A program made the position numbers and the translations under genes. Below are positions 30,532 to 59,207 of a stretch of 64,000 nt of DNA, one piece after another. Position 1 is the first letter of the stretch, and every line of letters begins with the position of its first letter. Location: the UHGV virus genome UHGV-1358930; one strand, 5' to 3'. The notes under the pieces are model-generated. The model did no database searches. It worked only from the letters and a program-made list of their open reading frames with translations, and was not told the origin of the DNA. Origin of the DNA: a virus.

Positions 30532-31266
30532 ATGGGATGGATAATGTCTTCAAAATTTCCTGGAAAAGCTATCATCTACAACTACTACAATCAGGATGTA
30601 GGTAGTTCAAAGAAGGGAACATATACGAAAGCGGATCCAGAATTCTTCAACTGGCAAATAGGTGAATACTGGCTCCAGCACGATCAATGTATAAAATATA
30701 TCAACACTGCCGAAAGTGCGATACGATTGACACGTGTAGGAATAAAAACCATGTCATGTAACTCCAATGGTCAAAGTTACTGGTCATACGGAGGTGGTCC
30801 GAACCCGCCTGTAACTGGCAAAGGTGGAAAATATTATGCGTTTATACAGCATTTTGATGCAAATGAAAACTTGCTAGATAGATCATATATTGGAGATACT
30901 AAACCTGCGATTGATATTCCCGACGTTGGACCTAACATGATATGGGCAGGAGACGGAAGTACGCTAGGGCATACTGCAATATTTGATTCAACAAAGATGA
31001 CGATGAACACATATGAAACACCAGATTGTCCTGCCATACAGCCAGGAGAAGGATTCTATCTTCATTTAGGCATCGGAGAATTCACTGAAACTTGGCTACC
31101 TGCAGTAAACATCATGTTTTCATTAGTGCCTGGAGATATGGATATATATATTGAACCTGCAGAACAGCCGGCAATATGGAGATTCGAAGAGGATAGAAAA
31201 TGGCACTTAGTTAAACGCTTATACAAGATGACAGGATCCGGATGGACAAGCATGTACGACAAGTAG
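30532..31266 (+). CDS. hypothetical structural protein
   Basis: AAGGAGAAAAAA RBS; 244 aa. Confidence 0.5.
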   Translation: MGWIMSSKFPGKAIIYNYYNQDVGSSKKGTYTKADPEFFNWQIGEYWLQHDQCIKYINTAESAIRLTRVGIKTMSCNSNGQSYWSYGGGPNPPVTGKGGKYYAFIQHFDANENLLDRSYIGDTKPAIDIPDVGPNMIWAGDGSTLGHTAIFDSTKMTMNTYETPDCPAIQPGEGFYLHLGIGEFTETWLPAVNIMFSLVPGDMDIYIEPAEQPAIWRFEEDRKWHLVKRLYKMTGSGWTSMYDK

Positions 31267-31274
31267 GTGAAATC

Positions 31275-31661
31275 ATGAAAATATTTACAAGCAAGACAAC
31301 AAAATTAAGTGCTAATCAGCAAGTAAATAGAGTTGGTAAATACTTATTTAATCACATTGACAGCGCATACAACTATAAAAAATCTGGAAATATGTTTGAT
31401 GTGTATATCACAGCATACTATCAAGATACAAGTAGACTCGACTCTAGTGTAGAAGAAATGAATATTGACATCAACATAACTACATACAGCAATAAGCTCC
31501 GAATAAATATTATTTCTTTAGATGAAAATGAGAAGACTATCGGATCTGATGTGTATACGCCTGAGTTTCTTGAGGACTTGCCGAAAGCTTACAGCAAAAT
31601 AATGAACCGAATAAAGTACAGGATGTCTAAAGAGTTCTCGAAATACGAATTTATTTTCTAG
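31275..31661 (+). CDS. hypothetical protein
   Basis: AGGTGA RBS before ATG 31275. Confidence 0.45.
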   Translation: MKIFTSKTTKLSANQQVNRVGKYLFNHIDSAYNYKKSGNMFDVYITAYYQDTSRLDSSVEEMNIDINITTYSNKLRINIISLDENEKTIGSDVYTPEFLEDLPKAYSKIMNRIKYRMSKEFSKYEFIF

Positions 31662-31929
31662 ATTCGTTATTTATATCGGAGGAGAATCTACAAATGAGAC
31701 TATACATCAAATCAAGTGAAAACACATCCGAAGAATTTGAAACGTTCAACACATTTGAAGTTAGTAGCATATCCGATGTACTTTCAGCTCATGCCTGATG
31801 AATTTCACTATAAAAGACCTCTTAGACAAGGAGGTCCGATGCTTGTGAAAATAGCTTATAGAACAATTCAATGGTAATCAGTTTTCACGCGTTAACATAA
31901 CATCATTCTAACTAGGAGCTGCTGAATCA

Positions 31930-32709
31930 ATGAAAAAACGAATATATCCAATATCTGCTGGAATTCGTGTTGAGAACAACAAATTTATATTTAAGAATGA
32001 AAATTCACCTGATGATATAATTGATTTCAAATATCCTCAGATATATCAATCGAAATTTGGAAAATACACTTATTGGTTCGGTTACAAGTTCAATGACACA
32101 GTTTCCTCTAAAGACAGATCTAAGTTCTTGCACGCTATCAAAGGATTATCCGAAGATCAGATATCTGATAATGATATTGTTGACTTTATAGACAGGCCAA
32201 TATTTGAGTTAGACAACTATATAAATACGTACAGCATATCTGCAGTTATTTACCCAGTATCTGGAAGAAGCAAGTTAGTTTCTAAAATAATAAGTGAAGT
32301 AGGGAGATTCACTTCACATGATACAAAGAGGCTGTCGTTTGAGTTTGTTAAAAATATTCCAAATAAAATTGAATTTGATTGGGAGCAATTTGAATCCGAT
32401 ACGTCGAATGATCTCAACAAATACAATCAAATGAAGAAATATGTAACAGAGGAATTGTTACCAGCTATTCATTCCTTAGATTACTTTTCTCTTGCAGAAA
32501 ATGTGAAACCTAAATATCGAAAGTATATAAAAAACTATTTGGCATTGTCTGAATCAGATGTAGCTAAACTAGCTTCGTTAAAAGGTGAAACTGTTCTTAT
32601 TATAGACGATATAAATACATCAGGTGCTACACTAGATGAGCTTGTCCGAAACATCAGACTACTAAATAACACGTGCAAGATTTTTATTTATACGCTTATC
32701 GGTAAATAG
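31930..32709 (+). CDS. type I phosphoribosyltransferase-domain protein (C-terminal PRPP-binding motif) with unknown about 150-aa N-terminal domain
   Basis: PRT type I signature VLIIDDINTSGATL near the C-terminus; TAGGAG RBS. Confidence 0.6.
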   Translation: MKKRIYPISAGIRVENNKFIFKNENSPDDIIDFKYPQIYQSKFGKYTYWFGYKFNDTVSSKDRSKFLHAIKGLSEDQISDNDIVDFIDRPIFELDNYINTYSISAVIYPVSGRSKLVSKIISEVGRFTSHDTKRLSFEFVKNIPNKIEFDWEQFESDTSNDLNKYNQMKKYVTEELLPAIHSLDYFSLAENVKPKYRKYIKNYLALSESDVAKLASLKGETVLIIDDINTSGATLDELVRNIRLLNNTCKIFIYTLIGK

Positions 32710-32904
32710 CGAACCAATCGTTAATTTATATAGTAACTTGACGAAGAGTATACTCAATATCGTGCACATGGAGTAAAAAAAATAACATTGACACATGCCG
32801 ATGATCACATAGATAGAATACCGCTTGTGTTTTGTAAGAAACCTTGACACCCACAAGCCCAGCAGAAATGCTGAAATAAACAAAAATAAAAGGAGTTAAT
32901 AATT

Positions 32905-33654
32905 ATGAGTAAATTACGAAAGATCATTGTTTCAGAAATTGAGGACTACAGAGTTCTCTTGCGCAATGCGCCAGCTGTTACAATGATCTTTTTCTGTGTG
33001 TCTGTTATCTTAATGAACCTATTTGCGTCTAAAGAGCTACTAAATATTGAATATTTAGGGCTAGATTGCGGATTTTTGCTATCATGGCTCAGTTTTCTTT
33101 GCATGGATATGCTGACAAAGCGATTTGGTGCAAAACCCGCGATCAAACTTTCATTGTTTGCTGTTTTCCTCAACTTGCTTACATGTATATTCTTCTTTAT
33201 AGTTGCACACATCGGAAACAACTGGGCAGCTTTCTATACATACGAAAATGACATTGCTAACTCCGCTATAAATGAAACAATCGGAGGTACCTGGTATGTG
33301 TTAGTGGGATCAATGACTGCTTTCGTTGTTTCGTCAATTGTAAACGCACTGCTAAATGAAGGAATTGGTAAATTAGTTAAGAGGAAAAATTTTGTCGAAT
33401 ACGCTCTTAGGTCATATGCTTCTACAATGATTGGTCAGTTTGTAGACAATCTTGTTTTTGCAAGCTTAGTATCTAAGATTTTCTTTGGGTGGACATGGAA
33501 GCAGGTAGTATTTTGCTCACTCGCTGGAGCTATCGCAGAACTTCTATCCGAAGTAATTTTCAGCCCGATCGGATTTAAAGTTTGCAAGAAATGGGAGAAG
33601 CACAATGTAGGCGCGGATTATATCAAGTACACGCTTAGCAAAGAAAGGAGATAA
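32905..33654 (+). CDS. yhhQ: YhhQ/DUF165-family membrane protein (queuosine-precursor preQ0/preQ1 transporter family)
   Basis: 6-7 predicted TM helices; CMDMLTKRFGAKPAIKLSLFAVFLNLL resembles the YhhQ core (D..tEvyG motif); AAAGGAG RBS. Confidence 0.6.
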   Translation: MSKLRKIIVSEIEDYRVLLRNAPAVTMIFFCVSVILMNLFASKELLNIEYLGLDCGFLLSWLSFLCMDMLTKRFGAKPAIKLSLFAVFLNLLTCIFFFIVAHIGNNWAAFYTYENDIANSAINETIGGTWYVLVGSMTAFVVSSIVNALLNEGIGKLVKRKNFVEYALRSYASTMIGQFVDNLVFASLVSKIFFGWTWKQVVFCSLAGAIAELLSEVIFSPIGFKVCKKWEKHNVGADYIKYTLSKERR

Positions 33655-33660
33655 TTAAAC

Positions 33661-34341
33661 ATGTCAAATAACAAAGGAGTAGTAGTTGTAACTGGATCTT
33701 CTGGAGGTATTGGAGAGGCCATATGTAAAAAATTTCTATCCGAGGGGTTTGAAGTTCACGGAATTGATGTAGTAACTCCTTCGACAGAACTTCTACATGA
33801 TTTAAACTTCTATTCACACATAAACGATATTAGAAATTCTAATGATCTGCCAGACATTGACAAAGTGGAGTACTTGATCAATTGTGCAGGTACTCAAAAT
33901 TCATACGATGATATCGGAAATAATCTTATCGGTCTAATGAATACTACAGAGAAATATGGACTTCAATATTGGATTAAATCAATTGTAAACATGGCATCTG
34001 TATCCGCGCACAACGGATGTGAATTTCCTAAATACGTCGCGTCTAAAGGTGGTGTGCTCGCTTATACTATATGGACAGCCAAAGAAATTGCTACATACGA
34101 GAATCACCCAACATGTAACAGCCTATCATTTGGCGGAGTACTGACAGCACTTAATTCGGAAGTTATCTGTGACAAAGAAAAGTTCAACAAGATTATGGAC
34201 ATGACTCCGTTAAGGAAGTGGGCTACAGCTGAAGAGTGTGCAGAATGGACATACTTCATCTCAGTTGTAAATAAATCAATGTCAGGACAAGATATCATTA
34301 TCGATAACATGGAAACTAGAAACAATCAGTTTGTTTGGTAA
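33661..34341 (+). CDS. short-chain dehydrogenase/reductase (SDR) family oxidoreductase
   Basis: Rossmann TGSSGGIG at the N-terminus; catalytic YxxxK-like YVASK; AAAGGAG RBS. Confidence 0.6.
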   Translation: MSNNKGVVVVTGSSGGIGEAICKKFLSEGFEVHGIDVVTPSTELLHDLNFYSHINDIRNSNDLPDIDKVEYLINCAGTQNSYDDIGNNLIGLMNTTEKYGLQYWIKSIVNMASVSAHNGCEFPKYVASKGGVLAYTIWTAKEIATYENHPTCNSLSFGGVLTALNSEVICDKEKFNKIMDMTPLRKWATAEECAEWTYFISVVNKSMSGQDIIIDNMETRNNQFVW

Positions 34342-34350
34342 AGTATTCAA

Positions 34351-34406
34351 AGAGAGTTTTGTATTCCTTTGAAACCCTCTCTGAAAATAAAAATAATAAG
34401 GAGAAG
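34351..34406 (+). ncRNA. candidate preQ1-I-type riboswitch-like leader (hairpin + A-rich tail + SD) upstream of queF
   Basis: agagag..ctctct 6-bp stem, then gaaaataaaaataataaggag with the SD in the tail; architecture only, no model scan possible. Confidence 0.3.
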
Positions 34407-34413
34407 TAAAAAA

Positions 34414-35925
34414 ATGCTAAAATCAAACAATGGAAGAACATCCGAAGACTTATCAGGAGTAACTCTACTTGGTAATAACAACACTGAGTACAACTACGAC
34501 TATACTCCAGAAGTTCTAGAAACATTTGTAAACAAGCATCCTGACAACGATTATGTTGTCACATTTGATGCTTATGAATTTACAAGCAAGTGTGTCACCG
34601 GAGACACTATGATAGATGTTGCATGTAATGAAACTGACAATCCGGATGGAATTCCAATCAAAGATTTGGTAGGTACAGAAGGATATGTGTTTTGTGTAGA
34701 TCCCACTACATTACAACCATTATGTAGGAAGTATCGAGATGTACGAAAGACTGGAGAAAGTGTACCTGTAGTTAAAGTACTCATGCAAAGTTTGAGAACA
34801 GATGGAAAGGGTAACACATACTATGAATCTTCTGAAATCAAGTGTACACCTGATCATATGATATTGGTGAAAAAAGGATTCCATGATAGCGAATGGGTGT
34901 GTGCAAAAGATCTCAAACCTGGCATGAGGTTGATTGCAAATCAAAGAAGTGGAGATGTAATACGATCTAAACTTCGACACAGACTTATTGGGGAAGCAAT
35001 TTTTGATGAAGATATTATGAATATTCATCATATAGACGGTAATCATTACAATAATGACCCATCTAATCTATCTAATTTATCTTCTCATGATCATCACCAT
35101 CTTCATAGATCTCAAGAATATGGATACGATAATTTAGATGTATCATACTTAGTTGATCTGTATAACTCCGGAGAAAACTTCAACTCCATAGCAAAGATGT
35201 TCAACTGTGATGTATCTACCATTGAATCTAGAATAGGTAATATAGTTGGAAGACGGACACAATCAGAGTCATTATCACTACGAAATAACTTGTTGAATAA
35301 AGAGCGGGATAGCGAAATCTGTGAATTGTACAACAAAGGATACTTGCTATCTGAAATTGCAGATTACTTAAATATCCACAGTACAACAGTGTTAGGAGCA
35401 CTAGAAAGACACGGCATCCCTCGCAGAGAATCGAACTTCTCTAGGTACAATCGAAAGAAATTGAACCTCCCACCATTGAATCATAAAGTACTAGCTGTAC
35501 TAGATGGTGGATATGAAGATGTGTACAACATGGAAGTAGAAGGAGTTGAAAACTATTTTGCCAATGAAGTGATAGTCCATAACTGCCCAAAAACGGGGCA
35601 GCCAGATTTTGCAAAAGTTGTAATTAGTTACATTCCTAATGAGAGAATGGTTGAAAGCAAGTCCCTAAAGCTTTACCTCTTTTCTTTCCGCAATCATGGA
35701 GATTTCCACGAAGACTGCATGAACATCATCATGAAGGATCTAATTCATCTTATGGATCCGAAGTACATTGAAGTAAAAGGTATTTTTTCTCCAAGAGGAG
35801 GTATCTCCATCTTTCCCTTTGTTAACTACGCGAATCCGAAATTTAATTATCAGGATTTTGCAAAGTCTCGAATGCTGGAGGCGCTTAGAGATTCGAGCAA
35901 TAGAACAGTAAGATACGATATGTGA
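34414..35925 (+). CDS. queF: NADPH-dependent 7-cyano-7-deazaguanine reductase QueF (YkvM type), interrupted by an intein (extein 172 aa)
   Basis: N-extein ends ..AYEFTSK, C-extein starts [18 protein letters not shown]..; spliced junction [14 protein letters not shown] matches the QueF catalytic motif E(F/Y)TSLCPxTGQPD. Confidence 0.8.
34591..35583 (+). mobile_element. intein (331 aa) within queF carrying an HNH endonuclease domain and two HTH modules; inserted immediately before the QueF catalytic Cys, which serves as +1 residue
   Basis: Block [11 protein letters not shown] at the start; terminal VIVHN followed by extein Cys; HNH core [23 protein letters not shown]. Confidence 0.75.
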
Positions 35926-36023
35926 AACAACGGGAAGATATAAATATAGTAAAGTCTGTAGATACGTACAGCAAAAAAAAGCAGCAAACTCTAGAATAGA
36001 TTACAATTACTTAGAAAGGTTAG

Positions 36024-36767
36024 ATGAAAATGGAAAACAAAAGAAATTCAAACAAAAAAGCGTTGGTGCTCTCGTCAGGTGGAGTAGACTCCACTACTTG
36101 CGTAGGTATTGCTGTAAATGAATTAGGTTCTGAAAATGTTAGCACTGTATCGGTGTTTTATGGACAGAAACACAATAAAGAACTTGAATGCGCTGAAAAA
36201 GTAGCTGAATTTTATAATGTAAAGCACTATGTTCTTGACTTGTCTAATGTCCTTCAGTACAGCAACTGTTCTCTAATGAAGAACAGCACAGAAGAAATCC
36301 CTATGATGAGCTACGCAGAGCAGATTGAAAAGAATGGTAAACCATCAACAGAAGTTCCATTGAGAAATGGACTCATGCTCATGGCAGTTGGCTCATTAGC
36401 TATGCAACTTTATCCAGAAGCTGATGTCGATATTTACATTGGAGCACATGCCGATGATGCTGCAGGTAATGCTTATCCAGATTGCTCTGCAGAATTCATT
36501 CAAAACGTAAAAGAAGCAATATTGATTGGATCTAGATATAAAGTTAACTTAGTTTCTCCATTTGTGAATCATAACAAATCAGAAGTTGTTAAATTAGGGT
36601 TATCTATAGGTGCTCCGTATGAATTAACAACTTCCTGTTACAATGGCAGAGAGAAAGCTTGTGGATTGTGTGGAACCTGCAGAGATCGTATAGCTGCATT
36701 CAAAGCAAACAATGCAATTGACCCAATTGAATATGAAATTGACGACCCATTCAAAGAAATGCGATGA
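36024..36767 (+). CDS. queC: 7-cyano-7-deazaguanine synthase QueC
   Basis: PP-loop [14 protein letters not shown]; C-terminal zinc Cys cluster [10 protein letters not shown]. Confidence 0.9.
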
Positions 36768-36774
36768 TGTTCAA

Positions 36775-37371
36775 ATGGAAATATGGCGACCTGCTAAAGG
36801 ATATGAAGATAAATATGAGGTGAGCAATTTAGGACGAGTAAGAAATTCAAAGCATTATATCATGAAACCACATCTACAAGATGATGGATATCTTTGGATA
36901 TACCTTGCGTCTAAAACTAGTCCTAACAACACATCAATTCATAGGCTAGTTGCTAAAACGTTTATTCCGAATCCAGAAGGCAAACCGCAAGTAAATCACA
37001 TAGACGGGAACAAAACAAATAATCGAGTTGAGAATCTAGAATGGGTTACAGGATCTGAAAATGTTAAACATGCTTATGCCAATAATCTAATTGCAGACAA
37101 ATCTCCTGAAGGCATCAGAAATATTGTAGCAGCAGCTAGAAAATCATTGAAGAAATATTGCAACATCCCGATAATATGTGAAACTACAGGGCAAGAGTTT
37201 GAATCTATTCATCATGCTGCACTACATTATGATGTAGACGATACCACTATTCAAAACATCGTAAGAAATGTAACAAAAAGATCCAGAAAACTACCTGGAT
37301 TGAAATTTAGATTCAAATATCCAGAGATTACTTGTAGATCACCTCATAGAAAGAAACATTTAATTAAATAG
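36775..37371 (+). CDS. HNH homing endonuclease inserted between queC and queD
   Basis: [23 protein letters not shown]; [25 protein letters not shown]; C-terminal IENR/NUMOD-like module. The ORF listed from 36712 overlaps queC; the likely start is ATG 36775. Confidence 0.75.
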
Positions 37372-37387
37372 CTTTGGAGGAATGAGA

Positions 37388-37825
37388 ATGTATACAGTAA
37401 AAACAAAAGTATCTTTTGAAGCTGCGCATCGTCTATACAATGTAGACACATACTCAAAAGAATGCAGAGATAATCTCCATGGGCACTCATACAAAGTAGA
37501 AATTGTCGTAGGCGCAGATAACTTGAACTCTGCTGGAATGGTTATTGATTTCAAGCTGCTAAAAACAGTTATTCGAGAAGAGATTGAATCTAAATATGAT
37601 CATTCTTGTATATTGAGAAAATGCGATCCAATTGCAAATACTATCAAGGAAAACTGTAAGAAAGTTATCCTTGTTGACGAAAGTCCTACTGCAGAATGGA
37701 TGGCAAAAGAATTCTATGACATGATTGAATCTAAAGTTCATACGTATTCTTCTGATTTACATGTTGTTTCAATTGGAGTACAAGAAACAGAAAATAACAT
37801 TGCGTATTATCTTCCGGAGGAATAA
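37388..37825 (+). CDS. queD: 6-carboxy-5,6,7,8-tetrahydropterin synthase QueD
   Basis: CRDNLHGHSYKVEIVV zinc/catalytic motif; GGAGG RBS. Confidence 0.9.
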   Translation: MYTVKTKVSFEAAHRLYNVDTYSKECRDNLHGHSYKVEIVVGADNLNSAGMVIDFKLLKTVIREEIESKYDHSCILRKCDPIANTIKENCKKVILVDESPTAEWMAKEFYDMIESKVHTYSSDLHVVSIGVQETENNIAYYLPEE

Positions 37826-37827
37826 AC

Positions 37828-38469
37828 ATGAAAGTTATCGAATTATTTAATAGTATTGATGGAGAGGGCAAACGAGCTGGTATGCTCGCTACGTTTATAC
37901 GTCTGTCTACGTGCAATCTTAGATGCAGTTACTGCGATTCCGCTTACGCTTTCGATGATAAGCTTGCTGAAGAGATGTCAATTCAAAGTATTGTAGCAAA
38001 CTGCGACAAATATGATTGTCCGCAAATTACGCTAACTGGTGGAGAGCCTTTGATTTCCAGAGACGTAGAGCTACTTTTATCCGAACTTGATTCTCATGGA
38101 TATGACGTCAATGTGGAAACAAATGGGTCTATTGATCCATCCGCATATCATAAATACAAAAATGTTTGGTTCACAATTGACTGGAAATGCCCTTCTAGCG
38201 GTATGGAGTCAAAAATGAATCCGAAAGCATTTGAAACACTTCGTGAGCAGGATGTACTAAAATTCGTAGTAGGGTCAAATGAGGACTTACAAGATGCGTT
38301 ACACGTCATCAAGAAGTACAACCCAAAATGCTCAATCTATTTCAGTCCGGTATTTGGATATGATGCAAAAAATATCGTAGAATTCATGAAAGATCACAAA
38401 CTGAATGATTGCAAAGTTCAGCTTCAAATTCATAAGTATATCTATGACCCGAATGCTAGAGGAGTATGA
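37828..38469 (+). CDS. queE: 7-carboxy-7-deazaguanine synthase QueE (radical SAM)
   Basis: [10 protein letters not shown] radical-SAM cluster motif; GGAGG RBS. Confidence 0.9.
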
Positions 38470-38486
38470 TCAAAGAAGGTGTTGAT

Positions 38487-39062
38487 ATGAAAAATATTGA
38501 TAAAAACAAAATTGAAAAGCTGACAAGAGAGCTCTTAGTAGCTTTAGGCGATGATCCTGACAGAGAAGGGTTGAAGAAGACTCCAAGTCGAGTTGCAAGA
38601 ATGTGTGATGAATTATTTGAAGGTATGACACATTCGAATCACGAGATAGCTGAAATGTTCAATACATGTTTTGAAGATGTAAAAACTGGAGATCTTGTAG
38701 TGGAGAGCAATATTCCGATTCACTCCTGCTGCGAACATCATCTCATGCTGATGTATGATATGTCAGTAGCTATTGGATACATTCCAAATGGTAAAGTTAT
38801 CGGATTATCTAAGCTTGCTAGAATTTCTGACATGGTTGGAAAGCGACTTCAGTTGCAAGAACGAATCGGTTCAGATATCGCAGATATTCTCCACGAAATT
38901 CTCAATACCAATGACATCATTGTTGTCATTCAAGGAAAGCACGGATGCATGACAGCACGCGGCATTAAATCAAGAGAAGCAATAACTCGAACAGCTACAC
39001 TTAGAGGAAGATTTGAGTCAGATTCAGATCTACGATCCGAATTCTATTCTCTCATCAAATAA
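38487..39062 (+). CDS. folE: GTP cyclohydrolase I FolE
   Basis: CEHHLM active-site motif; N-terminus aligns with B. subtilis MtrA-type FolE ([17 protein letters not shown]). Confidence 0.9.
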
Positions 39063-42169: not shown

Positions 42170-42823
42170 ATGGATGTAGTAAAGAATATGCGTGGAAGTA
42201 TTTGGTGGTTGAAAGACGAATTTGATAAATACAAAGGTGAAAGAGGCATCCTTAGAGGTTCTAGGCCGGTTATCATTATGAATAATCCAGCAAACGAATA
42301 TAATGATTGCACTATTACATATTTGCCGATTTCTAAGTGCGAATCTCATGCTGGTGATGATAGTCGAATTCAAATGTTTTATCAGGTACCTATTCAGATT
42401 CCTGGTAATAAATCTAGTTATGTATGTTGTAATAGCATCATGACTACAACTACTTCTCATCTTGGAGAATATGTTGGGCAGATTTCAGAAGATAAGCTAA
42501 AAGAAGTCGAAGCCGAATTGATGCGTTATCTTTCTCTTTCTGAAAAAGTCGTTACACGAGAAGTAATAAAAGAGGTTAGGGATACAGACAAGGCAACGAA
42601 AACAACTTCTTTTTCTATTACAGACGCTGTCGCTTGTCCAGAACTCAAAAAAGTATATTCTAGTTGTACTGAAATGGCTAAAGATCTTAACTGCTCTCCT
42701 GCGTCTATCAGCAAGTCGAGTAGATGGGGAAGTAAGCTGATGCACAAATACACAGTGTTTAAAGTAGCAACGGCTGCTGGAAACTATGTTTGCAAAACTA
42801 AGGAGGAAATCAAAAATGAGTGA
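42170..42823 (+). CDS. protein with N-terminal PemK/MazF-like (toxin endoribonuclease fold) domain fused to a C-terminal putative DNA-binding module
   Basis: GSIWWLKDEF..KGERGILRGSRPVIIMNN...CTITYLPISK resembles the MazF/PemK core (G.E..G.RP..v.s ... v.PiTs). Confidence 0.45.
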   Translation: MDVVKNMRGSIWWLKDEFDKYKGERGILRGSRPVIIMNNPANEYNDCTITYLPISKCESHAGDDSRIQMFYQVPIQIPGNKSSYVCCNSIMTTTTSHLGEYVGQISEDKLKEVEAELMRYLSLSEKVVTREVIKEVRDTDKATKTTSFSITDAVACPELKKVYSSCTEMAKDLNCSPASISKSSRWGSKLMHKYTVFKVATAAGNYVCKTKEEIKNE

Positions 42824-49302: not shown

Positions 49303-49879
49303 TTGTATATATACACCATATTGTACATACAAACAATGCGACTTAGCTTGTCCTAATAGAGCTGAAGTGAATTGTTGGTTCAAACGATGCCGACTTGATA
49401 TGTCAAATAATTGCTTGCATACTAATATCCGAAATATTGAGAAAGCCGAGGATCTACTAAGTAACAAGTATGGAGAAACTGTGTGGTTTCCCACAGATAA
49501 TCCTTCAGATGCAAGCGACACTATTTGCTACGTAGCTATTTGCAAATATGGTAAAGGTACTGCTCTTGGAAACGGAATATACAATCTGGATTTTGCAAAA
49601 TTTATAGATATGATCAAGGAGTCCTGGAATACGCATTTTGAAACAGATAACTTAATTCAGATGCGTGTGTGGTCTTTGTCTGCAAATTACCTAGTTATCT
49701 CAAATCTAGATTATGTTAGATTTCAAGATTTTGAAAGTCAAACGTTGCTAAGGCTTCTGAATGATCGAAGAGATTATACAAAGACAACTGTAGTAGTTAC
49801 TAGTAAAGAACCTTTGGTCGGCAGCGGAAATTTCTTTCCTAGATTGACTTCTTTGCTAAAGGGGGTCAAGAGCAATTGA
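49295..49879 (+). CDS. hypothetical protein, Cys-rich N-terminus (possible helicase-associated factor)
   Basis: 194 aa immediately upstream of the helicase gene; function not inferable from sequence alone. Confidence 0.45.
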   Translation: MHDCIYTPYCTYKQCDLACPNRAEVNCWFKRCRLDMSNNCLHTNIRNIEKAEDLLSNKYGETVWFPTDNPSDASDTICYVAICKYGKGTALGNGIYNLDFAKFIDMIKESWNTHFETDNLIQMRVWSLSANYLVISNLDYVRFQDFESQTLLRLLNDRRDYTKTTVVVTSKEPLVGSGNFFPRLTSLLKGVKSN

Positions 49880-52299
49880 CGAATTCAGTAGAACTTCAAG
49901 TTATTTGTAAAATTTTAACAAGTCAAGATGATTCTGAAATTGATAGGCTGTGTGCGTTTGATGAATCCTATTACGCAGTATTCAAAGATCAGATCAAATT
50001 TATTCTAGATCATAGAGAAAAATATCATACTGTCCCAGACTTGTTTACGTTCCAAGCTCAATTCGAAGACATTGTTTTGATTGATGTAAACGAATCTGCA
50101 GATTTTTTAGTAGACGGACTTCGGAAAAACAAGCAGCAGATCATACTCTTACAAACATTCAATAAGCTATCTGAGTTAGGTTCTGCAGACGTTTCTGAAG
50201 CTTGGCAGTTCTTACAATCCCAATGCGACAAAGCTGCTCAACTTGATAATTCTAACCCGATGGATATCATCAAAGAAGCTCACAAGCGAAGTGATCAAGT
50301 TTTATCGCTAAGTAATCAAACAAGAATTCCTACAGGATTCAAAGAAGTAGATGAAACAATGTATGGAGGATTGTCAACTGTTGAAGAACTTTGTCTTGTA
50401 GTTGCTAGAACTAACACAGGTAAAGCTCAGCCTCTTTGGAGTAATATCTTAACACCTACTGGGTGGAAGCGTATGCGAGATATTCAAGTAGGAGACATTG
50501 TATGCGGTAGAGATAATGACAATGGTAAAGTAGTTCAAATATTTCCGCAAGGTACAATTGACTACTATCGTGTAAAGTTTGATGATGGTACTTATACGGA
50601 GTGTTCTGCAGATCATCTTTGGGAAGTTCTGGATAGTGAACGAAGGAAGCATGATAGAAAAACTTATGGTCAGTATCTTACATTGACTACTCGAGATATT
50701 CGGAATCATATGTATCGCAGATACTCTGTTGATATGTGTGAACAAATTGAATTCGAGAGTGCTTTTGATACAGATAGTGAACTTGACGGATATTTTTTAG
50801 GAGCATTTATCGGGCATGGTAGAAATGTAGGTAACAAGCTATATATTCATTCTCTGTCCGATGTTTCAAAGCGACGTATAATTGATGCATTGTCTAAATA
50901 TCGTTGTCAATTCACAGAAAATGATCCAAATACACTCGTGATTGAGGATAAGAATGATGGTAAGCTTATCCAAAAGATGTTCGAGTACAACTTGATGAAC
51001 TGCAAAGTCATTGATAGACATATTCCGGATATATATTTTCATAGCCCTGTAAATGTTAGAAAAGCTCTGTTATCAGGTCTCTGCGATACAGATAGCACAA
51101 TGTTATCAAAAAATCATAGAGGTTGGGTTTTCGTTACATCTTCAGATCAGCTTAAATCTGATTTTGTTTACATTGCTAGATCTTTAGGTGTAAAAGCAAA
51201 GGTGTCGACTGCAAGATCTGGTAGATGGGTTGACTTAGGTGTATCGCACGTTGCGAATACGTACCACAGGGTTATGTGTATCTCAAAATTCAATCCGTTT
51301 TATGGTTCACCAAATTACACAGAATTTGAACGCAGACAGGATAAAACTAAATTTAAAAATCGCAAGCGTGTTTGCAAATTCATTGATTCTATTGAATACG
51401 TAGGTAAGACGGAATGCCAGTGTATCATGGTAGACAATAAGACGCATACATATATTACAGATGATTTTATTGTCACACATAACACCTGGGTTACTACTAA
51501 GATGATGGAGTCTGCACAAGCGAATGGATTTCCTGTACTATATTATAGCCCAGAGATGCAATCTGCTTTCATTGGCACACGATTTGATACCTGGAGAGGT
51601 CACTTCCGAAATAGCGATATTCAACGAGGTAAATACAGCGAAGACTACATTCAGTACATCAAAGACATTGTTAAAGAGGAAACTGGTGCATTTGTTGCAG
51701 AAGACAAAGATATGCCAGGAGGAAAAACAACTGTCAGGTCGATTGAAACTCTAGTCAAGCGACATCATATAAAGCTTGTTATCATTGATGGTCTGTCTTA
51801 TATGGCAGATACAGAAAAGTCTGATAGCGATGTTATTAAGTATAAAAATATATGTACTGGACTATTCCGAATGTCTAAAACATATGGATGTGCTGTAGTA
51901 GTATCTGTACAAGCTAATAGAGACACTAAATCTAATGTCGATGACAAAGGAGTCCCGTGGCCTGATATGTATTCGATTGAAGGCTCAGACCATCCAGGAC
52001 GTATTGCAACTCAAGTATTTGCGCTTCGACAATTGTACGAAGAGCATACATTAGAGATAAAGCTGTTGAAGACTAGAAATGCAAAGAATGCAAATCCTAC
52101 GTTCGCATATGTATGGGATCCAAATACAGGAAACACAGAGTTTGTTTCGGATGATGCATCGGCTGCTCCTCCTTCTGCTCCTGCACAGCCTAGCAAGTTC
52201 TCAACGCCGACAGTGTCAGCAAAGATTGTACACACCGATATAGATGATAATCTAATCGATGCCAGTACAGATGACGATCTAGATGACGTTGAGTTTTGA
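49876..52299 (+). CDS. DnaB-like replicative helicase (T4 gp41-like), interrupted by an intein in the P-loop
   Basis: Exteins join as ..LVVARTNTGK|TWVTTKMMESAQANG (Walker A GxxxxGKT). C-terminal RecA-like motifs: Walker B LVIIDGLSYM, SVQANRD. Confidence 0.8.
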   Translation: MTNSVELQVICKILTSQDDSEIDRLCAFDESYYAVFKDQIKFILDHREKYHTVPDLFTFQAQFEDIVLIDVNESADFLVDGLRKNKQQIILLQTFNKLSELGSADVSEAWQFLQSQCDKAAQLDNSNPMDIIKEAHKRSDQVLSLSNQTRIPTGFKEVDETMYGGLSTVEELCLVVARTNTGKAQPLWSNILTPTGWKRMRDIQVGDIVCGRDNDNGKVVQIFPQGTIDYYRVKFDDGTYTECSADHLWEVLDSERRKHDRKTYGQYLTLTTRDIRNHMYRRYSVDMCEQIEFESAFDTDSELDGYFLGAFIGHGRNVGNKLYIHSLSDVSKRRIIDALSKYRCQFTENDPNTLVIEDKNDGKLIQKMFEYNLMNCKVIDRHIPDIYFHSPVNVRKALLSGLCDTDSTMLSKNHRGWVFVTSSDQLKSDFVYIARSLGVKAKVSTARSGRWVDLGVSHVANTYHRVMCISKFNPFYGSPNYTEFERRQDKTKFKNRKRVCKFIDSIEYVGKTECQCIMVDNKTHTYITDDFIVTHNTWVTTKMMESAQANGFPVLYYSPEMQSAFIGTRFDTWRGHFRNSDIQRGKYSEDYIQYIKDIVKEETGAFVAEDKDMPGGKTTVRSIETLVKRHHIKLVIIDGLSYMADTEKSDSDVIKYKNICTGLFRMSKTYGCAVVVSVQANRDTKSNVDDKGVPWPDMYSIEGSDHPGRIATQVFALRQLYEEHTLEIKLLKTRNAKNANPTFAYVWDPNTGNTEFVSDDASAAPPSAPAQPSKFSTPTVSAKIVHTDIDDNLIDASTDDDLDDVEF
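50425..51483 (+). mobile_element. intein (353 aa) with LAGLIDADG homing endonuclease; class-3-like (Ala1, WCT motif)
   Basis: Starts AQPLWSNILTPTGW; ends FIVTHN|T. Block B ..ADHLW, block F ECQCIMV, block G Thr-His-Asn. LAGLIDADG motifs LDGYFLGAFIGHG and LLSGLCDTDS. Confidence 0.65.
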
Positions 52300-52514: not shown

Positions 52515-53651
52515 TTAGGAGAAAGCTATTCTCAAGCCCTCGTTCAATATATTCTTTGATGCATTGATATCTCTATCATGTGTTGTTTGACAATTAGGAC
52601 AAGTCCAATTTCTAACTTCAAGATTTTTGACTTCTGGATTTTTGAATCCGCAACAGCTACAAGTTTGAGAAGACGGAAAGAAGGCGTCTATTTTGACAAG
52701 TTGTTTTCCATACCAGCTGCACTTGTAAGTCAATAGTTCAACGAATTTTGACCAGCTTGCGTCTGAAATTGCTCTTGCTAGTTTATGATTCTTGACCATA
52801 TTTTTGACTTTCAAGTCTTCAACACAGATTATGTCGTGGTTTTTGACAAATTCTGTTGACAGCTTGTGCAAGAAATCATTTCGTTGATTTGAAACTTTCT
52901 CAAATTGTTTAGCAAGTCTGATTCTTGATTTGTTTCTGTTATTAGATCCTTTTTGCTTCTTCGAGAGCTGTCTTTGAAGTCTTCTTAACTTCTTAGTAGA
53001 CTTTGAAAGGTATTTCGGATTTTTGATCTTTTCACCGTCTGAAGTTATTGCGAAATCTTTGATGCCGAGGTCAATTCCTACAACAGATCCAGTTTTGTCA
53101 AACTCTTCAATTTCAACATCTTTGCAACAGATACTTGCAAAATATTTTCCTGAAGCTGTTTTTGAGATGGTTGCCGAAAGCGGAGTTCCTTTGACATTTA
53201 AATTTCCTTTGAATTTAACCCATTTCAATTTAGGCAAGAAGATCTTGTTATCTAAACAATGAAATTGTGCAGGTGTGGAGTATGTAGCCTTATATGACTG
53301 TCTACTTGAAAGTTTCTTCTTAAATTTAGGATAACCTGGTTGCTTTCCATTCTTTACGTTTCTAAAGAAGTTTTGATACGCAGTATCAAGATCTCTAAGA
53401 GACGATTGCAAAGCCATTGCTTCAGGTTCTTTCAACCATGAATATTCGTCAAGCTTCTTGAGCTTTGTTAAATCTGCAGAATTTTGATTATATGTATTTG
53501 ACTTTCTTGCCTCTTCATAATCTTTGATGGATTTAGCAAGATAGTAGTTGTAGACAAATCTGCAGCAGCCAAAGGTTTTTGCAATTTGCTCAATCTGCTG
53601 CTTGTTCGGATATATCCGTATTTTATAAGCTTTCAGAATCATTTTGGTCAT
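52515..53651 (-). CDS. tnpB: TnpB (IS607/IS605-family OrfB, RuvC-like nuclease with C-terminal zinc finger)
   Basis: N-terminus [23 protein letters not shown]; zinc finger [24 protein letters not shown]. Confidence 0.85.
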
Positions 53652-54243
53652 CTGAAAGTGCCTCCTTGATTTTAGCTACGCTTCTCTTAGAATACATTTT
53701 CATTGAGTAACAGTGCAGTAAACTTACGATTTCTTCAAAAATTTCTTCAGAATCAAGTTTTTCGGATCCTAGTTGGGACGCAACAACTATCTCTGTTCCA
53801 AATTTTCTAAAAAGATGATAAAATAGATCAAATCCTACTCTAGACAGTCTGTCTTTATAATTGATAACTACTTTCTCAACTTTATATTCCAATACATCGT
53901 CTAATAGTTCAAAAAACTGTTTTCTGTTTTCAAAAGAAATTCCGGAAGCAACCTCTTGAAAAACACCATCGACTTGAATTCCGGAATTCATGCAAAAACT
54001 GTTCAAAGATTCAAGTTGGTTCGCTAGATCCGATTTTTGAGATATTGTAGAAACTCTAGCGTAGATATAATTTTTTCTTGTTTGACCGTTATTTAATATA
54101 GAGTAGACGTCTTTATCATGATAGATGCGCTTACCTGTAGGTGTTAAGTCATAATGAATGAGTCCTCTTTTGCAATAATGACCAAGTGTTGGCTGTGAAA
54201 TATTCAATAGTTGTAACACTTGTTTAGCTTTCATATTGATCAC
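53623..54243 (-). CDS. tnpA: IS607-type transposase TnpA (small serine recombinase with N-terminal MerR-like HTH)
   Basis: [26 protein letters not shown]; catalytic serine motif [14 protein letters not shown]; 29-nt overlap with tnpB. Confidence 0.85.
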
Positions 54244-54295
54244 CTCAAAATAATTTAAGGTTAAAAAATAATATCATCTTAATATAAAAAAGGAA

Positions 54296-55303
54296 ATGCT
54301 ATATATGAATATTGATACCATAATTGATAAACTTTCATCTCAAGGGTTTATACGCCTAAATAGGCATATAGGCGACTACTATAGCTGCTATTGCCCATTT
54401 CACAGTGATGGAAAAGAGAAAAAGCCGTCCTCTGGTATATTGCTAAGAGACCAGTATCGCAATGGACAGCACTATCCTGCTGGATTCTTTAACTGTTTCA
54501 CTTGTCACCATGCATATCAACTGGAAGAGTTCATCACAGAGCTATTGAAAGTTAATTCTATCCACATGTCTGGTAGAGATTGGCTCATCAAGAATGATCC
54601 AGATTATGATCCAGATACAGAATTTGAATATCTCTTACCTAGAGATATGATGCAGTCTGTCGTGAATTCTTTTGCATTAAAGCAGATATCTAGTAAGTCG
54701 GGAGTTCAAAAACCTTCATTCATATCTGAGTCAGAACTTTCTAAGTATAGATACACAGTACAGTATATGTATGACCGAAAACTTACAGACACTGTGATCG
54801 ACTTATTTGACGTAGGGTTTGATGCTAATTTCGTTCCAGCAGGAAGAAAGAAATCAGTTCCATGCGTCACATTCCCGGTAAGAGATGTCCACGGAAATAC
54901 GCTGTTCATCTGCAGACGATCGATTGAAGGAAAATCATTCTATCTACCGTCAAACATAGAAAAATCTGTATATGGGCTGTATGAATTACCTCAAGGATGT
55001 AAATCTGTTATCATCGCGGAAAGCTGCTTCAATGTTCTAACTTCTTACGTTTACGGTGTACCTGCTGTAGGTCTACTAGGTACTGGTACTCCTCATCAGA
55101 TTTCTCAGCTTAGAAGTTTAGGTGTAAATGAGTTTGTATTAGGATTAGATCCAGATGAAGCAGGAGATAGAGCTTGCAAGCGATTGAAACGAGCACTCGG
55201 CGATATTGCTATTATCCGACGCATGAATGGAATACCTGAAGGAAAAGATATAAATGACCTCACCAAGTCTGAATTTTTAGACATATACAGAAGTAGAATG
55301 TGA
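54296..55303 (+). CDS. DnaG-like DNA primase (zinc-binding + TOPRIM)
   Basis: Zinc finger CYCPFH..CFTCHH; TOPRIM VIIAESCFN ... LGLDPDEAG. Confidence 0.8.
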   Translation: MLYMNIDTIIDKLSSQGFIRLNRHIGDYYSCYCPFHSDGKEKKPSSGILLRDQYRNGQHYPAGFFNCFTCHHAYQLEEFITELLKVNSIHMSGRDWLIKNDPDYDPDTEFEYLLPRDMMQSVVNSFALKQISSKSGVQKPSFISESELSKYRYTVQYMYDRKLTDTVIDLFDVGFDANFVPAGRKKSVPCVTFPVRDVHGNTLFICRRSIEGKSFYLPSNIEKSVYGLYELPQGCKSVIIAESCFNVLTSYVYGVPAVGLLGTGTPHQISQLRSLGVNEFVLGLDPDEAGDRACKRLKRALGDIAIIRRMNGIPEGKDINDLTKSEFLDIYRSRM

Positions 55304-55344
55304 TAGATCGTTAAAATTAAATGTACTAAATACTTAGGAGTGAT

Positions 55345-55632
55345 ATGTTGATTACACTGAATATTAGAAATTGTAAGATTTTAGACACTGCGACTTTATC
55401 TAAATTGACAGCATATATTGATAAGTTGCAAAATAAACTTGAAGCTGCTGAGATGGTTGAATCGCAGCAGAATATGTTGATCGACGCGTTGATCGAAGAA
55501 AATCAAAGACTTCATACTTTAGTAGATACTGGGCGGGATACCAATGAAACTAAACAAACAGCAAGAAAAGCTAATAGATCTATCGTTTCTGTCCGATATA
55601 AAACAAGCTCAAGTTATGCAGACATGCGATAA
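55345..55632 (+). CDS. hypothetical coiled-coil protein
   Basis: TAGGAGTGA RBS; 95 aa. Confidence 0.4.
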   Translation: MLITLNIRNCKILDTATLSKLTAYIDKLQNKLEAAEMVESQQNMLIDALIEENQRLHTLVDTGRDTNETKQTARKANRSIVSVRYKTSSSYADMR

Positions 55633-55840
55633 GATTATCGAAGATTTGACAAGCAACCACTCTAGCATTAGACAATGTTCTGATAACATAGGAGTGCCTA
55701 AGTCTACAATTCATCTTTATATTCACACTTATATTAGAGAATATTATAACAGCGATTATAAGGAGATCCAGCATCTTTTGCAATTCAACAAGAGATACAG
55801 ATGCAAATGTAGAAGATGCTGGACAGAAAGGTACTGGTGA
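55544..55840 (+). CDS. hypothetical protein with HTH-like segment (overlaps the previous ORF in another frame; true start uncertain)
   Basis: SIRQCSDNIGVPKSTIHLYI resembles an HTH; Cys-rich C-terminus. Confidence 0.3.
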   Translation: MKLNKQQEKLIDLSFLSDIKQAQVMQTCDKIIEDLTSNHSSIRQCSDNIGVPKSTIHLYIHTYIREYYNSDYKEIQHLLQFNKRYRCKCRRCWTERYW

Positions 55841-55844
55841 TATT

Positions 55845-57035
55845 TTGAATTATGCTTGGATGTTGAGGCAAGACGGTACGGCATTCAGCTGCACACATCA
55901 TTTATATTGCATGGATGACGACGATTTATCTTCTGAAGCAGAGTGTGCTGCATTTATTTTAAATAGCAACTCTAAAGATTCTAAATTAGCCGAATTGATT
56001 CTAGACGCTTGGATGGCATTAGGGATTGAAAACTCTGTCAACTACGATGCGGATGAAGAAGACATTGAAAATGCAATCATCAAATTTGCAAACTCCGTTC
56101 CATATCATTTTCAATTTGAGTTAAAGTTAAGCAAGCTGTTACAGATTCACAAATCTGCACATAATTATAGCGATGTGGACAGCTTGTATGAGTTCTGTGA
56201 CTATGTTAGATCTGAGTTATCTACGCTTCAAAGACAGATAAAACATTCTATCAATCAGCAGTTTTGTAGAGTTAGATTTGGAGGGCAGTATGACTCAATC
56301 AATCCTACTAGCACACTTTGGTTTAGAATCTCTAGTGTAGGATTCAATTGGGCTGATACTATATACATTTTCGCTTCAGAATGCAAGAAGTCTTATCATG
56401 TAGCATACATTACCATATGTAGAGATCATGAATCTGACAATGGTATAGATTCAGACGCAGATGAATATTTCTACAAGGCTCGAGATGGAGCTATCTATTA
56501 CAACATGCCGATTGAAGAGTTCCTTGCTGAAGAACATGAACATTCTTTAGTATTTTCTAACAAGCAGATAAATGTCATGAAGGGCTACGTGAAGACCATT
56601 AGAGATTGCTTCAAGTTTGGTAAAACCGAGCAAGAAACTGCAGATATTTTATTGTCGCACGATATTAACTATGATCCGATGATGTGGGATAGATTGAAGA
56701 ATAGAGACAGAGCGCGTTTCTGTATTGCAGCGTCACAATACTTTGATGAGGCAAACAACAGGACAAAGAACCGATTGAACAAGATTATGAATATGATCAT
56801 CAATCGCTACCCTGAAATCAAATCTGTGGATATTGACTACAAATACAGAGACAAGGTGAGAGGTAAAACACCTGGATGCGAATATCTATTCTATTTGACA
56901 TCTAACTTTGATGAAATTGATAGACTAGAAATATCAACTGTATTCAATCGTCTAGAAACAAACCCGGATATTATCTTTAGAAGATTCAAACAGGAATATG
57001 AATCGTATAAAGAATACTCAAACTTGAATATCTAA
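55845..57035 (+). CDS. hypothetical protein
   Basis: 396 aa, TTG start as listed. Confidence 0.5.
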   Translation: MNYAWMLRQDGTAFSCTHHLYCMDDDDLSSEAECAAFILNSNSKDSKLAELILDAWMALGIENSVNYDADEEDIENAIIKFANSVPYHFQFELKLSKLLQIHKSAHNYSDVDSLYEFCDYVRSELSTLQRQIKHSINQQFCRVRFGGQYDSINPTSTLWFRISSVGFNWADTIYIFASECKKSYHVAYITICRDHESDNGIDSDADEYFYKARDGAIYYNMPIEEFLAEEHEHSLVFSNKQINVMKGYVKTIRDCFKFGKTEQETADILLSHDINYDPMMWDRLKNRDRARFCIAASQYFDEANNRTKNRLNKIMNMIINRYPEIKSVDIDYKYRDKVRGKTPGCEYLFYLTSNFDEIDRLEISTVFNRLETNPDIIFRRFKQEYESYKEYSNLNI

Positions 57036-57040
57036 ATCTA

Positions 57041-57104
57041 AATATTAACGAATTATTAACGAACGGAAATAGGTATTGACTTTTTAGCCATTTTATCTTA
57101 TAAT
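57041..57104 (+). promoter_or_regulatory. AATATTAACGA/ATTATTAACGA operator-like repeats plus sigma-A consensus promoter (TTGACT-17-TATAAT)
   Basis: -35 at 57076-57081, 17-nt spacer, -10 at 57099-57104. Confidence 0.65.
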
Positions 57105-57165
57105 AATAGCATAATAAGTCAACCAAATAACACATATCAAAACACATCAATTGGAGGATTTACAA

Positions 57166-57858
57166 ATGGCTAAGAGAATCAGATTCAACGATATTTCCCG
57201 TTTCGACAAAAACAACAGAAGAAGAATTGCTCATGGCTCAGATCCTATTCCGGTTGTTAGACCCTTCCGTGCAGCGTATCTGATGTTCCGTGACTATCTC
57301 GATTATGACAGACCGCTGACTTATAATGAATGGATGAATCGTCTGGAATCAGATAAGGCAGCGGCTTTATATGTTCAGTTCTACGATCAGATTCAGCTTG
57401 CTTGGTACAAAGCAAAAAGCTTCTATGCTGTTGAAGAAGATGGCGTGTCTACAATGATGCAATATCTTATGAAGAATGTTCCTGTCATCAACAAAGACGA
57501 AAAGCGCTTCACACCTCGTTATATATATCGTGTAGCTTACAACTGCTTGTATTGCATCTGTCATGACATCAAAGTTGATAAAGACAGATGGGAGTTAGAG
57601 AGCAGCAATATTACATCTAATTCCGATGAAGAAGAAGTAGATGTGTTCAATTTCATTCCGTCTAATTTTGACATTGAGCGAATGATGAATGAAGAAAAAT
57701 TCTGGAAGGCTATCATGTCTCAAGACGAAGATACAATTACATATGTGGATTGCGTCATCAATCATACAAGATTTCCTGCGGGTATGAAAGCTAGAAGTCC
57801 TAAGATCATCGCAAAGTTAAAGGTAGTTCTTTCAGAACTGGCTGATGAGGAGTTCTAA
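57166..57858 (+). CDS. hypothetical protein (possible transcription factor)
   Basis: GGAGG RBS 8 nt before ATG 57166. Confidence 0.45.
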   Translation: MAKRIRFNDISRFDKNNRRRIAHGSDPIPVVRPFRAAYLMFRDYLDYDRPLTYNEWMNRLESDKAAALYVQFYDQIQLAWYKAKSFYAVEEDGVSTMMQYLMKNVPVINKDEKRFTPRYIYRVAYNCLYCICHDIKVDKDRWELESSNITSNSDEEEVDVFNFIPSNFDIERMMNEEKFWKAIMSQDEDTITYVDCVINHTRFPAGMKARSPKIIAKLKVVLSELADEEF

Positions 57859-58285: not shown

Positions 58286-58331
58286 TGAAATTTATAGCAT
58301 ATCTAGATATATCAAATTAGGAGGCAATAAT

Positions 58332-59174: not shown

Positions 59175-59207
59175 ATACAAAAATAAACTGATAAGGAGGA
59201 CATTAAG

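Follow-up and report, generated by a model that had tools for sequence, protein, structure and literature searches.

The 64,000 nucleotides of the virus genome UHGV-1358930 analysed here (hereafter the window) are phage DNA, with structural genes upstream and genes for dCMP deaminase, DnaB, primase and a split DNA polymerase (PolA) downstream. On the plus strand, upstream of queF, lie three genes, encoding a protein of phosphoribosyltransferase (PRTase) fold (31930–32709, 259 residues), a membrane transporter of the Vut_1/QPTR family (YhhQ, COG1738; 32905–33654, 249 residues; PF02592 at 81.3 bits against a cutoff of 27.2) and a classical short-chain dehydrogenase/reductase (SDR; 33661–34341, 226 residues; adh_short at 49.6 bits). 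The PRTase gene is an accessory gene or "moron" in a variable slot, and it lies outside the operon that follows. As a whole, the locus is probably such a moron standing beside a Dp-1-type operon for modification of DNA with 7-aminomethyl-7-deazaguanine (preQ1), into which a Vut_1-SDR cassette has been built. A megablast search of the cluster against 50,697 phage records returned no match, and no close relative was found among deposited phages.

The genes that follow the SDR encode QueF, the preQ0 reductase (34414–35925, +; TIGR03139 at 149 bits, with intein and HNH matches), QueC, the preQ0 synthase (36024–36767, +; PF06508 at 179 bits), QueD, the 6-carboxytetrahydropterin (CPH4) synthase (37382–37825, +; PF01242 at 95 bits), QueE, the radical SAM 7-carboxy-7-deazaguanine (CDG) synthase (37828–38469, +; PF04055 and PF13353), and FolE, GTP cyclohydrolase I (38466–39062, +; PF01227 at 210 bits); all five exceed their Pfam or NCBIfam thresholds. 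A preliminary description of the locus had placed three open reading frames (ORFs) on this strand in front of queF, each with a strong ribosome-binding site (RBS), and had called them a protein with a phosphoribosyl pyrophosphate (PRPP) motif, a Vut_1/YhhQ-family membrane protein and a classical SDR; the ORF coordinates, the AGGAG-type RBS before each gene, the motifs and the profile scores all agree with it. Its statement that the genes are tightly spaced holds for Vut_1 to SDR (6 nt) and for SDR to QueF (27 nt to the TTG at 34369 that starts the frame in the ORF list, 72 nt to the likelier ATG at 34414, which is the start with an RBS), and fails for PRTase to Vut_1, where 195 nt hold a structured leader RNA and no coding-strand terminator is predicted. 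A single three-gene operon is not supported either, with a leader RNA between the first two genes and a PRTase that is optional.

The PRTase in a variable slot

The slot (31663..32780, without strand) is situated between the last gene of the structural module (31242–31661) and the leader of the que operon. In 23 related loci the order is constant, with four late genes followed by the slot and then Vut_1; the slot is empty in seven, and elsewhere its content varies between unrelated small ORFs, an IS607-like element and the PRTase, the last of which occupies it in three lineages only. The clearest case is a sister phage (IMGVR_UViG_3300029032_000001), whose DNA is 97–99% identical to the window on both flanks of the slot. 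It replaces window positions 31663–32780 with 2.6 kb containing a serine recombinase, TnpB and a 163-residue ORF (an IS607-like element), and keeps Vut_1-SDR-QueF-QueC-QueD-QueE-FolE without the PRTase. The PRTase gene also lies upstream of the first of two leader RNA copies, and therefore outside both regulated units. Convincing repeats flanking the PRTase cassette were not found. Another IS607-like element is located near the PRTase-Vut_1-SDR trio in the contig L006, and the window itself carries one (serine recombinase and TnpB/Cas12f-like OrfB; 52515–54243, −) between DnaB and primase.

A survey of PRTase neighbourhoods gave 15 distinct loci, among which Vut_1-SDR stands beside the PRTase only in the window, in L001 (70% identity) and in L006-8 (53%), and que genes are found near it only in the window and L001. 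At the other 12, the sequence fetched (at most 10 kb to either side) contains neither Vut_1 nor the SDR nor any que gene; the neighbours there are NAD-ligase plus ThyX, a CCA-adding enzyme or structural-type genes. Conversely, 20 IMG/VR contigs with Vut_1 all lack the PRTase within 10 kb, and all are absent from the nine IMG/VR contigs returned by a scan for the PRTase motif. The only homolog from a cultured phage is gp114 of Sphingomonas phage PAU, which is full-length (profile E 7e-54), and the complete 219-kb PAU genome contains no QueC, QueD, QueE, QueF, FolE, Vut_1, SDR or Dp-1-type DpdA by tblastn and hidden Markov model (HMM) searches.

Regarding the protein, the PRPP loop VLIIDDINTSGATL occupies residues 221–234 and has the expected hydrophobic strand, acidic pair and T/S-G-x-T; D226, D227, T230 and T234 are invariant in 49 homologs. 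Profile matches are faint. PF00156 reaches 25.0 bits, under its gathering cutoff of 26.3, and covers only residues 212–246 (profile positions 80–112), and the NCBIfam matches to comF, Hpt, Apt and orotate phosphoribosyltransferase (OPRT) are far under their cutoffs: 19.1 bits against 233.55 for TIGR00201 (comF), and 18.6 against 150 for TIGR01203 and 16.2 against 184 for PRK08558 among the housekeeping Hpt/Apt/Gpt models. The phosphoribosyltransferase (PRT) core is of Rossmann-like fold and its nearest structure is ComFC. Likeness to Hpt and Gpt is confined to the PRPP loop, and the loop DDINTSG is of ComF/OPRT type and not of the hypoxanthine-guanine phosphoribosyltransferase (HGPRT) type; the position of the HGPRT catalytic Asp, after the acidic pair, we take to be Thr230. 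Comparison with BFVD gave only uncharacterised viral proteins.

The part preceding the PRT core consists of about 55 beta-rich residues followed by two helices up to about residue 98. It had been described as an unassigned domain of about 150 residues; that size is too large, and the N-terminal part is inseparable from the PRT domain in the family. The first search yielded 163 clusters at 90% identity and an exhaustive profile search 373 representatives at E≤1e-10, the best 150 of which are mostly full-length (N-terminal part plus PRT domain), the shorter ones being fragment proteins. Five distant members (P0342, P0372, P0380, P0381 and P0386) carry a YAcAr SLOG domain (PF10686) fused at the N-terminus. 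Comparative genomics has tied this domain to NAD- or nucleotide-derived signalling in phage–host conflict (PMC7824862), and the fusion thus links the PRTase family to conflict systems centred on nucleotides or NAD. The arrangement is reminiscent of the partnership of ComFC with DprA, also a SLOG protein. Most likely, the PRTase is a PRPP-dependent enzyme of nucleotide handling or of nucleotide-centred phage–host conflict, independent of deazapurines.

Leader RNAs and the transporter-SDR pair

The leader RNA was first seen when about 170 nt upstream of Vut_1 were aligned in ten loci, where compensatory changes were obvious. It has a stem of 5–7 bp, a loop GUUUUGUA...CCUGA(C/A)A(C/U)CC that begins with UU(C/U)(G/U) and ends with (A/C)(C/U)CC, and an A-rich tail leading into AAGGAG. 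In an alignment of 23 sequences, 99.3% of cells in the P1 helix are paired, with two-sided changes in five of its seven pairs (54 cells) and a covariation of 0.823, compared to 0.161 in shuffles (0/500 reach 0.823) and at most 0.168 when partner columns are slid. A pattern scan found 36 distinct sequences in related phages, located just upstream of Vut_1 or QueF bar three chance-looking exceptions, and the leader is present before Vut_1 in all related loci. A covariance model of the leader (R1) detects exactly two strong copies in the window: copy 1 at 32820–32907 (+; 55.5 bits, E 3.6e-9), which ends at the RBS and start codon of Vut_1 and has a lineage-specific extra hairpin, and copy 2 at 34347–34414 (+; 65.4 bits, E 3.6e-11), which ends at the RBS and ATG of QueF. 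A weak match at 4884–4946 on the minus strand is probably due to chance. R1 also matches the 5' untranslated region of Dp-1 queF (L018:73-135, 57.7 bits), and it gave no match in the vicinity of DpdA or of other phages' PRTase genes. The leader is a candidate preQ1-I-like riboswitch, its ligand being suggested by resemblance and context. Pairing of (U)UCCU in the loop with the RBS is plausible, although these bases do not vary.

The transporter and the SDR form a constant pair. The SDR is the next gene after Vut_1 in 19 of the 20 IMG/VR contigs found with the window Vut_1, and QueF-QueC-QueD-QueE-FolE follow in 14 of them. Moreover, in 14 of 80 loci found with the Dp-1-type DpdA, the gene for DpdA, the window subtype of Vut_1 and the SDR are adjacent (in the order DpdA-Vut_1-SDR in 11), and no que gene is seen in the sequence fetched there, up to 6 kb on each side; these loci resemble a form of the system that relies on salvage alone. 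Phages of the MS1 type have a different Vut_1 subtype and Dp-1-like phages have QueT, in neither case with the SDR. That the transporter belongs to the deazapurine pathway, as the preliminary description had it, is borne out by its place behind a preQ1-I-like leader and beside que genes, and beside DpdA in other phages.

The pair is also found in bacteria. A scan with the SDR profile, using one genome per bacterial species, returned 80 loci (L211-L290) from gut and rumen Clostridia, Oscillospiraceae, Lachnospiraceae, Bacteroidales, Coriobacteriia, spirochaetes and others, and Vut_1 abuts the SDR in 71 of them. The neighbours are unrelated housekeeping genes (prolyl-tRNA synthetase, HtpG, RlmE, adenosine deaminase), which indicates that these are chromosomal two-gene operons and not prophages. 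At 23 of 67 bacterial loci a preQ1-I-like aptamer, GACAG-UUCGU..ACCAUC-CUGUC-GUAAAACAAAACCAG, lies 30–340 nt before Vut_1, whereas the pattern has no match elsewhere in the 1.6 Mb of the same loci; the Rfam PreQ1 model aligns to two of these aptamers at 24–25 bits, compared to a gathering threshold of 39.

The SDR carries the cofactor motif TGSSGGIG, NCAG and S113...Y125-x3-K129. The Ser-Tyr-Lys residues and Asp36, which stands at the end of beta-strand 2, are invariant in 12 family members. An Asp at this position marks a preference for NAD(H) over NADP(H) in classical SDRs, and on this basis the enzyme would use NAD(H). preQ0 and preQ1 offer an SDR neither a hydroxyl nor a carbonyl group, so its substrate is more likely a hydroxylated compound of the queuosine (Q) family, and queuine may, speculatively, be named. 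The SDR probably acts in queuosine-precursor salvage as an enzyme not yet described. A more specific and tentative proposal is that it is a missing salvage enzyme which, for example, oxidises the cyclopentenediol of imported queuine (or of a similar hydroxylated precursor) to free preQ1, is controlled in many gut anaerobes by a variant preQ1-I riboswitch and was captured by phages to feed DpdA; jointly with it, and with the same reserve, the phage leader might belong to the preQ1-I class as a long-loop variant so far unrecognised. The SDR is not mentioned in the phage deazaguanine papers or in a survey of the transporters (PMC11130926), and no published description of the pair was found.

DpdA and the probable route of the base into DNA

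Dp-1 DNA carries dPreQ1 (PMC6884629), and Cui et al. (2023, PMC10516641) argue that DpdA, acting after replication, installs every 7-deazaguanine modification known in phages. Within the 64-kb window no DpdA was found by tblastn and phmmer with the Dp-1 and MS1 proteins or with an HMM of 70 DpdA sequences, nor by hhalign of DpdA against nine unannotated ORFs of the window and of L122 (run with one positive control). When a second scan was seeded with divergent members from large phages, at least 15 of the 20 Vut_1 contigs were among its DpdA matches, the sister phage being one of them. The sister-phage DpdA (L134:3001-3966), a protein of 321 residues, shares 39% identity with Dp-1 gp7 across 243 residues (E 4e-52); its gene lies in the replication module, about 38 kb downstream of Vut_1. 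An ENA contig, L122, is 100% identical to window positions 53253–64000 and runs 10 kb further; L134 is 95% identical to the last 2.9 kb of L122, and its DpdA starts about 140 nt past the end of L122. From this overlap, the DpdA of the window phage would be expected about 10.1 kb past the end of the window, beyond the genes for the clamp loader and RecA.

The sister-phage DpdA is followed by a gene resembling dATP/dGTP diphosphohydrolases (PF18909; L134:3980-4540), a pairing reminiscent of phage phiST, where a MazG/dUTPase-like gene is close to DpdA3. Just upstream of PolA the window encodes a protein of 6-pyruvoyltetrahydropterin synthase (PTPS)/QueD fold (57845–58285, +; PF01242 at 25.4 bits), which is comparable in position and in fold to the DpdL paralog proposed in phiST and is flanked by proteins of 396, 235 and 236 residues that have no detectable homologs. 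It was considered as a second QueD and rejected, as it does not have the Cys/HGH catalytic motif. Its 396- and 235-residue neighbours were considered as DpdA3-like proteins by analogy with phiST, and neither had a Pfam match at E≤10 or a tblastn match in phages.

The explanation that we favour, and consider probable, is that genes 32905–39062 would be the precursor-supply half of a Dp-1-type system placing preQ1 in DNA. FolE, QueD, QueE and QueC would produce preQ0, which QueF would reduce to preQ1; Vut_1/QPTR would import an external queuosine precursor, and the translationally coupled NAD-type SDR would convert or condition the imported compound. The leader copies before Vut_1-SDR and queF overlap the RBS, and expression would probably fall when the base is plentiful. 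DpdA would then swap the free base for guanine in finished DNA, and the PRTase would be a ComF-like PRPP-binding enzyme dropped into the slot upstream of the operon leader. The window phage would in this way fit the view of DpdA installing 7-deazaguanine after replication. Several observations weigh against this explanation. The PRTase gene is directly upstream of Vut_1-SDR in three diverged lineages (the window and those at 70% and 53% identity), and a fourth PRTase phage, the L002 contig, carries a window-type DpdA elsewhere, so that a loose functional association of the PRTase with deazaguanine phages is conceivable. DpdA is seen at the syntenic position of the sister genome only, and not in the window phage's own sequence. 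The Rfam PreQ1 model has no match in window positions 31600–34500 at E≤10 (the ligand being suggested by resemblance and context), nor in Dp-1 at E≤5. The transporter scores 43.3 bits with TIGR00697 ("queuosine precursor transporter"), under the cutoff of 50.95, and a comparison of the SDR sequence with the PDB gives generic SDRs only, with no characterised close relative.

The preliminary description had proposed a different role for the PRTase, namely salvage of a deazapurine base to the nucleotide level. On this model the PRTase would phosphoribosylate imported or phage-made preQ0 or preQ1, as do ToyH and TubE, which are PRPP-dependent 7-deazapurine phosphoribosyltransferases from the biosynthesis of toyocamycin and tubercidin, and the polymerase would draw the deazapurine from the nucleotide pool. 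The intact and invariant PRPP loop would suit this route, as would the place of its gene immediately before Vut_1-SDR in the window, L001 and L006-8, the DpdA that L039 has at the position held by the PRTase in the window, and the dGTP-diphosphohydrolase-like gene of the lineage. Nevertheless, it is most improbable. The near-identical sister phage dispenses with the PRTase and retains its que cluster, nearly all sampled phages with que genes or DpdA do without it, its gene is outside the preQ1-like leader, its loop lacks the catalytic Asp of 6-oxopurine PRTases, and there is no kinase or reductase dedicated to the product. The observations that the preliminary description itself had named as counting against the proposal, among them the trio in phages that lack que genes, have largely been made: the PRTase family occurs at 12 loci without nearby que genes and in PAU. 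Finally, with a DpdA in the lineage, post-replicative base exchange would explain the pathway and nucleotide-level salvage is not needed. The PRTase could otherwise help DpdA by recycling the released guanine (guanine + PRPP → GMP), and so pull the exchange forward and save purine as a useful but dispensable function. Dispensability would match the patchy distribution, and four PRTase phages have deazaguanine genes (the window, L001 and L006, and L002 with DpdA); yet PAU has the PRTase family without DpdA, the protein shows no likeness to Hpt/Gpt beyond the loop, and none of the nine IMG/VR PRTase contigs is among the matches listed in the two DpdA scans, which makes such a helper unlikely.

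Two further alternatives concern the cluster itself. It might feed tRNA instead of DNA, supplying more preQ1 to the host tRNA-guanine transglycosylase and thereby queuosine-tRNA for efficient translation of phage genes. The window is free of DpdA, the phage has nine tRNA genes and its leader resembles riboswitches of bacterial Q regulons, all in keeping with this idea, which is very unlikely all the same: the sister phage and 15 of 20 related contigs carry a DpdA gene, none of the nine phage tRNAs was called with a GUN anticodon (the tRNA-Tyr call being AUA), and Dp-1, with the same type of QueF, leader and DpdA, has dPreQ1 in its DNA. Alternatively, the Vut_1-SDR pair might be a generic cassette for uptake and reduction of a vitamin or metabolite, unrelated to deazaguanines. 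The Pfam name of Vut_1 (putative vitamin transporter), the TIGR00697 score and the unrelated housekeeping neighbours of most bacterial copies would allow this. It is hard to reconcile with a pair that adjoins DpdA in 14 phage loci and QueF-C-D-E-FolE in 14, that is preceded by the same leader as queF, and whose bacterial copies stand behind a preQ1-I-like aptamer in 23 of 67 cases with zero background matches, and we hold it to be quite improbable.

A PRTase route to deazapurine nucleotides, if true, would challenge the current view that phages introduce all their 7-deazaguanine modifications into DNA after replication (PMC10516641). Such a route is not supported here, and the view stands for the window phage. 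A transporter within a phage deazaguanine cluster is already on record (PMC6884629), and transporter genes are present in the MS1 and Dp-1 clusters; the Dp-1-type preQ1 operon is likewise known, and what is new is the conserved transporter-SDR cassette and the long-loop preQ1-I-like leader. With its links to preQ1 sensing in many gut bacteria and to DpdA in phages, the cassette suggests a step of Q-precursor salvage that is still unassigned, a field in which missing genes are actively sought (PMC11130926). The covarying leader before queF and the transporter in Dp-1-like and large gut phages is missed by current Rfam models (Rfam 15). The ComF-like PRTases, a family widespread in phages and in some members fused to YAcAr SLOG, are candidate players in nucleotide-centred phage–host conflict.

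Neighbouring elements and comparison with known systems

Homing elements are frequent around these genes. The intein of QueF (34591–35583, +; 331 residues, with HNH endonuclease and helix-turn-helix domains) is inserted right before the Cys of the EFTSxCPxTGQPD motif, which is presumably the nucleophile, and queF is uninterrupted in the 97–99% identical sister phage. A free-standing HNH/NUMOD4 homing endonuclease (36712–37371, +; PF07463 and PF13392) stands between queC and queD, its ORF overlapping the last 56 nt of queC (36712–36767); some related phages have an endonuclease at this place and others do not. The region from DnaB to the polymerase is very rich in such elements: the DnaB-like helicase (49876–52299, +) contains a Hom_end (LAGLIDADG-type) insertion, likely an intein, and the family A DNA polymerase (59208–64000, +) is split by one HNH and two GIY-YIG endonuclease genes. 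The gene at 42170–42823 (+) joins a PemK/MazF-like toxin domain to a DNA-binding motif of NUMOD1 type, an arrangement conserved in L001. The nine tRNA genes lie between 1869 and 8071; the tRNA-Tyr call (4950–5026, +) has the anticodon AUA, with A34 and not the queuosine-accepting G34, in the anticodon loop CUAUAGG, and amid the tRNA genes there is an Rfam match to abiF RNA (3359–3395, +; 38.3 bits against a gathering threshold of 37).

With respect to described systems, the PRTase resembles ComFC of H. pylori (PDB 7P0H) in ending with a PRT domain whose PRPP loop is close to the C-terminus. Unlike ComF/ComFC, it does not have an N-terminal four-Cys zinc finger (it has a single Cys, C248, and a beta-rich N-terminus), the identity to ComFC is 13%, and its context is a phage with no ComFA. 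ToyH and TubE offer a type I PRTase beside preQ0 synthesis genes, and their activity is the one proposed for the window protein in the preliminary description; they are, however, constant members of clusters in which nucleotide-tailoring enzymes come next, whereas the window PRTase is optional, lies outside the regulated unit and belongs to a family found mostly without que genes.

QueK and QueL of Clostridioides difficile are reportedly queuine salvage enzymes (Yuan et al. 2019). They share with the proposed role of the Vut_1-SDR pair the concept of a transporter plus an enzyme turning an imported Q-family compound into preQ1 in gut Firmicutes, and differ in that they are a nucleoside hydrolase and a radical-SAM lyase, whereas the partner in the window would, judging from its motifs, be an NAD-type SDR. 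QPTR/YhhQ proteins (COG1738, PF02592) are queuosine-precursor transporters (PMC11130926, citing Zallot 2017); the window transporter shares their Pfam family and the context of Q or deazaguanine genes and a preQ1-type leader, although its subtype is below the NCBIfam equivalog cutoff and is constantly coupled to the SDR, a pairing absent from that survey (PMC11130926). The leader parallels the preQ1-I riboswitch (RF00522; consensus GuGG-UUCGuAAaCcUCC-CaCu-AUAAAAAACUAAGG) in architecture and in standing upstream of queF and of a Q-precursor transporter, with a loop about 6 nt longer than the Rfam PreQ1 consensus.

The closest systems are those of the Streptococcus phages Dp-1 and MS1 (Hutinet et al. 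2019, PMC6884629; PMC10516641), which likewise combine FolE, QueD, QueE, QueC and QueF with a precursor transporter and the same DpdA subfamily. The window QueF exteins share 64–72% identity with Dp-1 QueF, for QueC the identity is 42–50%, and Dp-1 queF stands behind the same leader RNA. In contrast, the MS1 Vut_1 is only 23% identical to the window's, and neither Dp-1 nor MS1 has the SDR. Both have DpdA in the cluster, whereas in the window lineage it lies, as seen in the sister phage, about 38 kb away in the replication module; the window further adds the QueF intein and the upstream accessory PRTase.

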